Source: Clostridia bacterium
GTDB lineage: Bacteria; Bacillota; Clostridia; TANB77; CAG-508
Assembly: GCA_017528375.1 (NCBI GenBank)
Contig: JAFXOY010000160.1
Location: 37,398 to 101,397, forward strand
DNA length: 64,000 bases
Direction of reading: 5' to 3'
Positions within the stretch are counted from its first letter, which is position 1; the number at the start of each line of letters is the position of its first letter. The translations under genes and the position numbers were made by a program. Shown piece by piece: positions 18,517-20,940 of this stretch. The notes beneath the pieces are model-generated. The model was not told the origin of the DNA and did not search any database. It saw only the letters and a list, made by a program, of their open reading frames with translations.

Positions 18517-19833
18517 TTAAGCATTTTTTATGATTCTTATACCTTCTTCAAGAGATACAGAAACCTGTTCTCCTGTTTCCATATTTTTTAATGCGATTGT
18601 ATTATTTTTTATTTCATCTTCTCCAATTACAATTACATATGGAATATTTAATCTACTTGCATATTTAAATTGATTTTTTATTTTAGCATTATCTGTATAA
18701 ATTTGAGTATTAATACCATTATTCCTTAACTGAGTAGCTATTTCAATGCTTTTACTAAAATCATCAGCCATAGAAACAATCATTACTTTAGAAATACTTC
18801 TATTTCCCGCTTCTATAATCTTATTATCTGTCAATTGGAAGAACAATCTAGTTAATCCAATTGAAATTCCAACACCTGGCATTTTCTTGTCTGTATAATA
18901 GCTTGATAAATTATCATATCTTCCCCCTGAACATACACTTCCTAATTGTCTATATTGATTTAAAAAAGTTTCATATACTGTTCCTGTGTAATAATCCAAT
19001 CCTCTAGCTATTGTTAAGTCTATTTTATAATTTTCTGTTGGAACACCAAATAATTTAATATTAGATGCTACTTCCTCTAATTCATTTACACCTAAATTAA
19101 ATAATTCATTATCGATATTTAATTCTCTTAAAGCTGATATTGTTTCTTCAATGTTTCCAGTAATAGATATGAAATTCATAATAGTGTCTATTTTATTGCT
19201 ATCTACACCAAGTTCTTGAATTTCTTTAATTACATTTTCTTTACCTATTTTATCAATCTTATCAATAATTCTCAATATTTGTACAGAAAGATTATTTAAT
19301 TCTAAAGCTTCAAACAAGCCGTTTAATATTTTTCTGTTATTGATACTTATTGTAAAATCATCAAATCCTAATTCTTTGAAAGTATTATAAATAATGCTTG
19401 GAATTTCTGCATCATTTATTAAACTTAATTCATTTTCACCAATTATATCTACATCACATTGATAAAATTCACGATATCTTCCTCTTTGAGCTTTTTCTCC
19501 TCTATACACTTTTCCTATTTGATATCTTCTGAATGGGAAAGTTAAATTTGGATAATACTCTGCTACATATTTAGCAAGTGGAACTGTTAAATCAAATCTT
19601 AATGCTAAATCAGAATCTCCTTTATTAAATCTATATATTTGTTTTTCTGTTTCACCACCTGCTTTTGCAAGTAATACTTCTGCTGATTCAACAATTGGTG
19701 TATTTAATGGTAAAAATCCAAATTTTTCATATGTTTTTTGAATTTTTTCCTTCATTTCATTAAATAATATTTGTTCATTTGGTAATAATTCCATAAATCC
19801 TGGTAATGTTTTTGGTTGTACTTTTTCGTTCAT
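18517..19833 (-). CDS. hisS: histidine--tRNA ligase
   Basis: GGAGG + 7 nt then ATG 19833 gives MNEKVQPKTLPGFMELLP... Class II motifs RFDLTVPLAKY, FRRYQIGKVYRGEKAQRGRYREFYQCDVD, GGRYD. Confidence 0.9.
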   Translation of the reverse strand: MNEKVQPKTLPGFMELLPNEQILFNEMKEKIQKTYEKFGFLPLNTPIVESAEVLLAKAGGETEKQIYRFNKGDSDLALRFDLTVPLAKYVAEYYPNLTFPFRRYQIGKVYRGEKAQRGRYREFYQCDVDIIGENELSLINDAEIPSIIYNTFKELGFDDFTISINNRKILNGLFEALELNNLSVQILRIIDKIDKIGKENVIKEIQELGVDSNKIDTIMNFISITGNIEETISALRELNIDNELFNLGVNELEEVASNIKLFGVPTENYKIDLTIARGLDYYTGTVYETFLNQYRQLGSVCSGGRYDNLSSYYTDKKMPGVGISIGLTRLFFQLTDNKIIEAGNRSISKVMIVSMADDFSKSIEIATQLRNNGINTQIYTDNAKIKNQFKYASRLNIPYVIVIGEDEIKNNTIALKNMETGEQVSVSLEEGIRIIKNA

Positions 19834-19934
19834 TTTAATTCCTCCTTCTAAATCTTTAAGGATAGTTATCACTTCCTAAAATTAACATAAATTTACTATT
19901 TTTGTCAATACATTTTAAATAATCTTATGCTATA

Positions 19935-19984
19935 CAAAAAAGACTATTTGCAAGTATTTTACACATCCCACAAATAGTCTTTTA
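19935..19984 (-). terminator. leader terminator (attenuator) upstream of hisS
   Basis: Minus strand AAAAGACTATTTG-(20-nt loop)-CAAATAGTCTTTTTTG, located about 100 nt upstream of the hisS start and downstream of the leader ORF. Confidence 0.7.
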
Positions 19985-20061
19985 AAATTTTATTTTTAAA
20001 TATTTTTAAACTATCGTAGGCATGCTTTTTAGCCTGTACCTACGCAATAATTTTGCAATAG

Positions 20062-20115
20062 TTACAAGCTCTTACAATGATGATGCACTTTGTTTAAAAA
20101 TATTTCTAATTTCAT
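20062..20115 (-). CDS. 17-codon leader peptide MKLEIFLNKVHHHCKSL (three consecutive His codons)
   Basis: GAGGTA SD with 5-7 nt spacing, then ATG 20115. Codon-by-codon translation ends at TAA 20062-20064. CAT CAT CAT occupies 20077-20085. Confidence 0.6.
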   Translation of the reverse strand: MKLEIFLNKVHHHCKSL

Positions 20116-20147
20116 AATTTTACCTCTTTTCTTTTTGATATACTGAA

Positions 20148-20176
20148 ATAATAACATTTTTTGGAAGAAATGTCAA
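20148..20176 (-). promoter_or_regulatory. sigma-A type promoter of the hisS leader
   Basis: Minus strand TTGACA (20176-20171), 17 nt, TATTAT (20153-20148). Confidence 0.65.
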
Positions 20177-20178
20177 TC

Positions 20179-20940
20179 TTATTTAACACTAATATGTATG
20201 TCTTCTACCTTAACGCCTATTTCTCTACATACAATATTTTGTATTTGAGCAATATCTGCTTCTGAAAGCTTTTCAGCTTTTACAATAACACTTGTACTGT
20301 TATCATTAACAAATATAACAACATCTTCAAATCCTAAATTTTTAATTAAGTTTTCTGCTATCATTATAGAATTCTTTTTATTATTTATCTTAGCAATTTC
20401 CTGAGTTGAGATGTTTTTTTGATCAGCTGCAATATTGCTGTTTTCAACTAGCCCTTGATATGATTCTAACATTTGTGAATACATTTTATCTCTTTCAAGC
20501 CTTGAAGCTACAAAGTAATCAGCTTGATAAGTTGTTGTTGAAGTTGTTTTAGTTGATTGGGTATTGTTATTCTCTGTTGATTTTTCTGTTGATGTACTGC
20601 CTGTTGATGTACTGCTAGCAGAGGTATTGTTAGATCCATTTGTATTATTAATACCGCTCTCTGCTGTTTGAATTGCCCCTGGATTATTGTCGTTAGAGTT
20701 TTCTTGATTTGATTCATCTTCTAATTCAATTTCTAAATCGTCATTGCCATTGTTATTCTGATTGACAGTATTGCTATTTACCAATTTTGCATCACCAATT
20801 CCTGCCATTTTTTCAGCATCCATTAGTGCACCTGTTTCAACAGAATTGTGCATATTATTTGAAAAACTCATGTAACCTACTGTTATTAACATTAATGCTA
20901 AAACAGAAATTATAATTTGATTTCTTTTTAAAACTTTCAT
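20179..20940 (-). CDS. spoIIIAH: stage III sporulation protein AH
   Basis: 253 aa with an N-terminal TM helix and an N/S/T-rich linker. The C-terminus YFVASRLERDKMYSQMLESYQ...IMIAENLIKNLGFEDVVIFVND... is typical of SpoIIIAH. It is the last gene of the spoIIIA cluster. Confidence 0.85.
   Translation of the reverse strand: MKVLKRNQIIISVLALMLITVGYMSFSNNMHNSVETGALMDAEKMAGIGDAKLVNSNTVNQNNNGNDDLEIELEDESNQENSNDNNPGAIQTAESGINNTNGSNNTSASSTSTGSTSTEKSTENNNTQSTKTTSTTTYQADYFVASRLERDKMYSQMLESYQGLVENSNIAADQKNISTQEIAKINNKKNSIMIAENLIKNLGFEDVVIFVNDNSTSVIVKAEKLSEADIAQIQNIVCREIGVKVEDIHISVK

Follow-up and report, generated by a model that had tools for sequence, protein, structure and literature searches.

The gene hisS, encoding histidyl-tRNA synthetase (HisRS), lies on the minus strand of contig JAFXOY010000160.1 from a gut Clostridia bacterium (assembly GCA_017528375.1), and the present analysis concerns the leader upstream of it, all elements of which are on the minus strand (19834-20176). 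Coordinates are those of the window, the whole 64,000-nucleotide (nt) stretch of this contig that was analyzed. Amino-acid-sensing leader-peptide attenuation is textbook knowledge for Proteobacteria. In Firmicutes, it has been a matter of computational prediction only, and aminoacyl-tRNA synthetase (aaRS) genes are assumed there to be under T-box control, their usual mode of regulation. An earlier note, drawn from the letters of the sequence, had described five elements upstream of hisS, namely a promoter, a Shine-Dalgarno sequence (SD) followed by an open reading frame (ORF) containing CAT CAT CAT, a hairpin, a segment complementary to the terminator, and the terminator itself, all of which are indeed present on the minus strand where it had placed them. 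In the order of transcription, the locus reads as follows:

20181-20179, minus strand: stop codon of spoIIIAH (SpoIIIAH identified by Pfam PF12685)
20176-20148, minus strand: promoter P1, with -35 TTGACA at 20176-20171, a 17-nt spacer, TG at 20156-20155 and -10 TATTAT at 20153-20148
20126-20121, minus strand: SD of the leader ORF, GAGGTA, 5 nt ahead of the ATG
20115-20062, minus strand: leader ORF, MKLEIFLNKVHHHCKSL, 17 codons plus stop
20085-20077, minus strand: regulatory codons CAT CAT CAT, His11-His13
20044-20015, minus strand: hairpin CGTAGGTA...TGCCTACG, -13.5 kcal/mol
19983-19936, minus strand: intrinsic terminator, with its 5' arm (segment E, AAAAGACTATTTGTGGG) at 19983-19967 and its loop at 19966-19955
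19954-19939, minus strand: 3' arm of the terminator (segment F, CTTGCAAATAGTCTTT), with T6 at 19941-19936
19908-19879, minus strand: candidate second promoter P2, with TTGACA at 19908-19903, an 18-nt spacer, TG at 19887-19886 and TAATTT at 19884-19879
19833-18517, minus strand: hisS, 438 amino acids (aa), TIGR00442 at 418.9 bits

P1, with its TG extension, scores 11/12, and the terminator, a stem of 17 base pairs (bp) of about -19.2 to -19.3 kcal/mol, lies 102 nt upstream of the hisS start codon. A simple terminator scan called no terminator at the leader, because the apical loop is larger than the limit of the scan. The fold of the whole leader (z = -3.96) is better than those of all 100 shuffled sequences. 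Features of the attenuator class found here are a short ORF with its own ribosome binding site, a run of codons for the cognate amino acid, an intrinsic terminator, and an antiterminator that depends, in silico, on the ribosome. We consider it very likely that the element is a histidine-responsive, ribosome-mediated transcription attenuator controlling hisS. The evidence consists of the sequence elements themselves, their conservation, the absence of a T-box, switching in silico, and covariation.

The assembly is a metagenome-assembled genome (MAG) of 1.99 Mb in 187 contigs, 92% complete, in which hisS is the single HisRS gene (the only match above the family cut-off). An Rfam scan of the 64-kb window gave no family at gathering score, and no tRNA, rRNA, or riboswitch was found in it. 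When 19750-20300 was scanned permissively (E<=10), neither RF00230 (T-box) nor RF00514 (His_leader) was present; the three Rfam matches at E>2 (Plastid-rps18, SIB_RNA, and SSRC8_2) were dismissed as noise over the terminator and P2. T-boxes were matched at eight other loci of the same genome, which served as a positive control; the organism therefore does use T-boxes, but not at hisS, as the earlier note had maintained. The locus is, in this respect, a clean case, with the sole hisS placed behind a His leader in a genome using T-boxes elsewhere, and the genome holds one copy of the His leader, the one at hisS. The assembly, at 92% completeness, has no detectable hisD, and the organism is therefore probably a histidine auxotroph. 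A search for a T-box near hisS in 20 leaderless relatives also came out negative, so that replacement of a T-box by the leader within the order is not directly demonstrable.

The earlier note had counted absence of the ORF or His run from relatives among the findings that would refute its proposal, and the ORF is kept there. In a model-free look, hisS orthologues were taken from 40 relatives and every short HH-containing ORF within 450 nt upstream was listed. SD-preceded HHH mini-ORFs were found upstream of hisS orthologues at 9/30 loci, in three sequence designs, and a strong promoter and a U-tailed terminator accompany all nine. The group 1 design, MK…IFLN.LHHH(R/C/Y)(R/K)SL-stop, is that of the window and of loci L014, L015, and L019. 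The group 2 design, …(E/K)LHHH(C/Y)RSTCIA-stop, occurs at L017, L018, and L042, and the group 3 design, from another family, reads …AHHHVGYLSC-stop and …AHHHCMGILAC-stop (L030, L031). With groups 1 and 2 as its basis, a covariance model matched 34/401 genomes of the order, distributed over 13 genera and 5 families, while a DNA-pattern search of a species-representative genome collection returned 90 stretches, all from MAGs of uncultured Clostridia (rabbit, mouse, human, and ruminant guts). Combining the model and pattern searches yielded 79 distinct complete leaders, for a total of about 80 copies.

Within this set of 79, the ORF has 17 codons in 55 leaders and 18 codons in 17, exactly four codons separate HHH from the stop in 73, and the family peptide consensus is M-x-x-x-IFLN-x-L-HHH-(R/C)-R-S-L-stop. 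Near-consensus promoters of their own precede 71/77 leaders, with a TG extension in 67 of these. An SD and ATG open to the His run are found in the His frame for 79/79 leaders, which follows from the selection of the set on this frame, and in the other two frames for 0/79. Weaker model matches include HHY, HH, and HYH variants, and distant members carry two to five His codons per leader, with CAT and CAC mixed. Matches outside the order, in one family of larger genomes, read CAT CAT CAC CAT CAT, CAT CAC CAT, and CAC GTA CAC CAT CAT, the last of which precedes a canonical hisS (KGTKDYLPEE). This synonymous CAT/CAC variation, with His kept, argues for selection on the codons and not on the RNA sequence alone.

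Besides the terminator arms E and F, the leader RNA contains the following segments, named here by their pairing:

20106-20092, minus strand: segment P, GAAATATTTTTAAAC, codons 4-8; partner of Q when the leader is not translated
20079-20071, minus strand: segment A, CATTGTAAG, His3 plus two codons
20070-20063, minus strand: segment B, AGCTTGTA, Ser-Leu codons plus TA of the stop; pairs with C'
20044-20035, minus strand: segment C, CGTAGGTACA, 5' arm of the C:D hairpin
20038-20031, minus strand: segment C', TACAGGCT, partner of B, overlapping C
20022-20011, minus strand: segment D, TGCCTACGATAG, 3' arm of C:D or 5' strand of the D:E antiterminator
20011-19998, minus strand: segment Q, GTTTAAAAATATTT, which pairs with P, or with the AU-rich base of E by its 5' part

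In the window, the duplexes B:C', C:D, D(Q):E, and P:Q amount to -10.6, -12.1, -13.9, and -10.2 kcal/mol, respectively. The core of the antiterminator is CCTACGATAGT paired with ACTATTTGTGGG. These pairings are mutually exclusive, as TACA is common to B:C' and C:D, the CGTAGG of C is enclosed by B:C', D is common to C:D and D:E, and E is common to D:E and E:F. The antiterminator proposed in the earlier note, a pairing of ATAGTTTAAAA with TTTTAAAAGACTAT, does exist as complementarity, but it is only the AU-rich flank of the longer D:E duplex, which also uses CCTACG (the 3' arm of the hairpin) and GTGGG (in the 5' arm of the terminator). What that scheme missed is the helix linking the ribosome to the RNA, B (AGCTTGTA) with C' (TACAGGCT), in which B consists of the last codons and the stop, and C' overlaps the 5' arm of the hairpin. 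TTTTT occurs within segment Q, and in about 20 leaders it can be mistaken for the T-run of the terminator.

According to the proposed mechanism, the P1 transcript would begin with the 17-codon ORF bearing three consecutive His codons. When charged tRNA-His is low, the ribosome would stall with His1 or His2 in the A-site, covering P and A and leaving B free. B would then pair with C', the CGTAGG of C would be trapped in the loop, and D would be available to pair with E as it emerges. Once D:E has formed, F could not build the terminator, and RNA polymerase would continue into hisS. With ample His-tRNA, the ribosome would reach the stop inside B and mask it, so that C:D and then E:F would form, ending transcription about 100 nt before hisS. 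In the untranslated transcript, P:Q, (A:D), and B:C' would make up one long hairpin sequestering D, and the terminator would form. Stalling, kinetic coupling, and read-through are what we infer from the arrangement of these segments.

The dependence on ribosome position was examined by constrained folding of 81 leaders. As full-length masked folds mostly retain the terminator, the transcripts were shortened before its 3' arm and ended just before F. With the A-site on His1 (mask from -15 to +12), B:C' formed in 77/81 leaders and C:D in 4/81, and a D:E helix of 6 bp or more was present in 78 leaders, with a median of 13 bp. With the A-site on the stop, B:C' formed in 0/81 and C:D in 78/81; the median D:E of 7 bp that remains in this state is the AU-rich flank. 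For the full-length window, the minimum free energy (MFE) structure with the A-site on His1 is already antiterminated (-37.4 kcal/mol), and the unmasked MFE structure consists of P:Q, B:C', and the terminator, i.e., the state termed 'no translation, terminate'. The constrained folds and the pair counts given below thus show, in silico, an antiterminator that is exclusive with the terminator and whose formation is set by the position of the ribosome. The alternative pairings invoked in the earlier note therefore do act, in silico, as a ribosome-position switch, and its identification of ribosome-stalling attenuation was right in kind, in view of this switch, of the compensatory changes, and of the histidine-related targets.

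Pairs were counted in the model alignment (82 distinct rows). For the antiterminator fold (B:C' plus D:E), 91.9% of cells are paired, versus 25-44% in slid controls, and six pairs have changed on both sides, in 17 cells, a number reached by 0/500 shuffles. For the terminator fold (C:D plus E:F), 94.2% of cells are paired, versus 28-50% when slid, with 15 pairs and 94 cells changed on both sides. These counts are to be read with the fact that the antiterminator fold is absent from the model and that, at C:D and the base of E:F, the alignment is biased towards the terminator fold. When distant members are included, anchored pair tables contain GC/AT, TA/CG, and AT/GC swaps in C:D, GC/AT and AT/CG swaps in B:C', and CG/TA and AT/GC swaps in D:E, where CCTAC:GTAGG changes to CCTAT:ATAGG and CCTGC:GCAGG. 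Matched insertions occur in B and C' (AGCTTGTA:TACAGGCT, AGCACTTGTA:TACGAGTGCT, and AGCGCTTaGTA:TACAAGCGCT), and a further B:C' variant is AACACTTGTG:CACAGGTGT. In L171, C, D, and E have changed jointly, from CGTAGG:CCTACG:GTAGG to CGCAGG:CCTGCG:GCAGG. In an alignment-free partner permutation, cognate partners beat non-cognate ones for B:C', C:D, E:F, and A:D (0/2000). Alignment of seven sequences by MAFFT/RNAalifold recovered only C:D and the base of E:F. The relay of group 3 appears to differ, since its sequences suggest that ATCACCT, 7 nt past the stop, pairs either with the SD of the leader itself or with the terminator loop and 5' arm; in support of this relay, L030 and L031 differ by one T:A to A:T swap.

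Across five families of the order, the primary sequence of segments A-D is very highly conserved, beyond the needs of base pairing. This could point to a ligand-, tRNA-, or protein-binding riboregulator built on the conserved RNA core (GCGTAGGTACAGGC…GCCTACGATAG), with the ORF secondary or irrelevant to sensing, and no such family is described in Rfam. Yet two or three alternative partners per segment already constrain the sequence, and members whose RNA differs, namely group 2, group 3, and the Lutispora type described below, retain both an SD-ATG in frame and the His run. The His codons vary synonymously, features of a T-box are lacking, and the distance from His1 to B, fixed at 15 nt in groups 1 and 2, matches the downstream reach of the ribosome and hence its footprint. 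A riboregulator of this kind is held to be a very slim chance. At L022, L025, and L026, whose hisS is ~72% identical to that of the window, a consensus promoter is followed by …CAATAGTTTATA… and by a hairpin ATAGACTATGT…ACATAGTCTAT, like D, E, and F, with no leader ORF, an arrangement that may have arisen from the attenuator by decay or by loss of the ORF.

The genes behind the leader were counted for the 69 leaders with an identifiable downstream ORF. HisRS genes of all types make up 26/69 targets, comprising HisRS of the window type (9/69), a second type that is 34-36% identical (7/69), and the second type fused to a C-terminal domain (10/69). The same C-terminal domain is encoded as a free protein of ~265 aa in 13/69 cases. 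The remainder are a GNAT acetyltransferase (12/69), an SBP_bac_3 binding protein (11/69), an M20 peptidase (2/69), hisZ-like, hisD, and GtrII-like genes (1/69 each), and two genes to which no identity was assigned (2/69). Both the fused domain and its free 265-aa counterpart are similar to histidine racemases (CntK NF033599, 1.4e-25; PDB 9cr6/9cr1 'Histidine racemase', ~2e-15), both matches being below curated cut-offs. The HisRS-racemase-like fusions measure ~690-703 aa and stand directly behind the His leader (L073, L085, L092, L101, L116, L132, and L140). Other family members precede genes whose N-terminal sequences read as those of hisC, hisG, and hisIE. The coherent histidine theme among the targets constitutes independent support for His-specific sensing.

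Several loci illustrate the diversity of these arrangements. In genome G057, two tandem His leaders (L164:251-585; model matches at 251-399 and 453-585) precede a hisG-like gene, and both leaders have a separate terminator. In genome G015 (L016/L064, contig C3), a window-type hisS (87% identical) directly follows a gene with a hisG-like C-terminus, a group 2 His leader and a hisZ-like gene are found ~1.7 kb upstream of this hisS, and another HisRS-like gene, 36% identical, follows after a further 3 kb; the order of this operon is likely leader-hisZ-hisG-hisS. The GNAT targets are ~193 aa long (L044, L046, L057, L063, L065, L068, and others) and the M20 peptidase targets are those of L103 and L120, both of which hint at the metabolism of N-acyl- or peptide-histidine.

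From these data, a broader picture can be sketched, to which we assign slightly less than an even chance. In this sketch, one His-leader family would have replaced the T-box as regulator of the essential, single-copy HisRS gene in the order, and would also define a wider histidine-starvation regulon, comprising the HisRS-racemase-like fusion, the free racemase-like genes, and the GNAT, M20 peptidase, and amino-acid binding protein genes. Such a regulon would point to an undescribed salvage of D-, N-acyl-, or peptide-bound histidine, and hisS would be the only target kept in likely auxotrophs. The list of downstream genes gives, in any case, a functional hint (histidine) for uncharacterized GNAT, M20, and racemase-like genes and for the HisRS-racemase fusion.

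A number of observations speak against histidine-responsive attenuation at hisS, or reduce the weight of the evidence for it. Most copies were collected with a pattern or a model containing His codons, which makes their HHH partly circular. The sequences are related, and counts based on shuffles overstate the number of independent events. Covariation of D:E was not significant in the partner permutation (216/2000), because both of its strands are nearly invariant. A:D is weak in the window (-4.0 kcal/mol), because the codons are TGT AAG and not CGT AGG; in most relatives, which have CGT AGG, A:D is 8 perfect bp. In public RNA runs, only short contigs from relatives cover hisS, and the leader region yielded no informative sequence. 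The full-length MFE structure of the window keeps the terminator with the A-site on His2 or His3, and the model therefore depends on co-transcriptional kinetics. Lastly, the candidate promoter P2, if used, could bypass the attenuator from its position downstream of the terminator.

The retention of the terminator under several ribosome masks would also suit a leader acting mainly on hisS translation or mRNA stability, or as a general translation-stress sensor, and Ashniev et al. (PMC9413887) place comparable leaders under the supplementary heading 'translational attenuators'. Against this, the 17-bp stem with T6 is 102 nt away from the hisS start codon and so cannot sequester the SD of that gene; in addition, the regulatory codons specify His in every case, and the genes behind them are histidine-related. 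Such a mode of action is regarded as quite improbable, if a little less so than the riboregulator discussed above.

P2 deserves attention for another reason. The genes spoIIIAE, AF, and AG are found further upstream of spoIIIAH, which has no terminator of its own and ends 3 nt before the -35 box of P1, and polymerases reading through from the sporulation genes would likewise run into the His leader. The hairpin and T-tract could, then, be the terminator of the spoIIIA operon, with hisS transcribed from P2 (19908-19879) and the small ORF a chance frame in an AT-rich spacer; an open frame of 17 codons is not an unusual chance event, and the TTGACA-18-TGnTAATTT site between terminator and hisS is kept in L015. 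This is the only hisS leader other than that of the window to conserve P2, as it is for a small hairpin at ~19876-19857, between P2 and the hisS SD. P2 is absent from the other hisS leaders, and most hisS leaders, with the terminator 27-52 nt from the start codon, leave no room for a second promoter. Moreover, the leader, with its promoter, SD, HHH, and terminator, accompanies His-related genes, not spoIIIAH, in ~80 contexts, and the alternative helices are backed by covariation. Of the explanations considered, termination of spoIIIA is the one to which the least credence is given. Under histidine-responsive attenuation, P2 would supply basal hisS transcription independent of the attenuator, which would be sensible for an essential gene.

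The output expected of the leader is that of a T-box (RF00230), i.e., more synthetase as tRNA charging falls, through a choice between terminator and antiterminator. They differ in that the T-box senses uncharged tRNA directly, whereas the leader of the window has no specifier loop, T-box sequence, or covariance-model match. Control of an aaRS operon by leader-peptide attenuation with cognate codons is known from the pheM leader of pheST in Escherichia coli, which differs from the leader of the window in amino acid, phylum, and sequence. The six-segment (A-F) model of the Salmonella his leader is textbook knowledge, and the enterobacterial his leaders (RF00514) share the logic proposed here, with consecutive His codons and with A:B, C:D, and E:F versus B:C and D:E relaying the position of the ribosome. 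They show no similarity in sequence or by covariance model to the leader of the window, and have seven His codons versus three; the aaRS target and the Gram-positive lineage are further differences on the side of the window.

The arrangement has precedents in Firmicutes (PMC2965389, PMC9413887). For the Bacillus cereus group, a prediction by Naville and Gautheret (2010, PMC2965389) places a His leader peptide before a hisS paralogue (hisS*) and hisZ. Likened by the description in that paper, this leader has in common with the present one an ORF with His codons and a premature terminator before a HisRS-family gene of a Firmicute, in place of a T-box. In Bacillus, it is an extra paralogue that is controlled, and the main hisS keeps its T-box, whereas in the window the only hisS is controlled.

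The closest resemblance is to leaders described by Ashniev et al. (2022, PMC9413887), whose predicted His-leader attenuators precede his operons of the B. cereus group, Peptostreptococcaceae/Lutispora, and Erysipelotrichales; hisS is not mentioned. Their candidates upstream of hisZG… operons come from Peptostreptococcaceae and Lutispora thermophila (Additional file 6B). The Lutispora type and the window family both have a short ORF with three to five consecutive His codons and a stop inside …TTGTA…, followed by (C/A)ATAGGTACA…, …CCTA(C/T)GAT…, and a terminator 5' arm with …ATAGG/GTAGG. The printed Lutispora and Terrisporobacter leaders also share …TTGTA(A)…ATAG(G/A)TACAA…CTATGATGG… with the window family. 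Four leaders, L168 and L169 of the Lutispora type together with two relatives, are matched by model R1 at 48-52 bits (E from 5e-4 to 2e-3), and the sequence of L168 (52 bits, E about 5e-4) matches that of the printed Lutispora leader. The marks of their group B, …TTGTA-stop … ATAGGTACA … CCTAYGAT … and a …TAGG 5' arm, are thus found, with modest scores that do not settle between common descent and convergence. The two differ in their peptide and spacer sequences, in the P:Q clamp, which is an addition of the window family, and in their targets, namely his biosynthesis operons versus, in the window, the one HisRS gene of a genome in which hisD was not detected.

A leader of this kind had thus already been predicted in related bacteria, and, judging by the motifs in common, the element appears to belong to, or to be closely allied with, the proposed clostridial His-attenuator family. 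The ~80 related copies offer enough variation for a six-segment mechanism and for an RNA family model that is missing from Rfam. What is new here is the target, the sole essential hisS of a probable auxotroph, together with the breadth of the regulon and a mechanism with covariation support.

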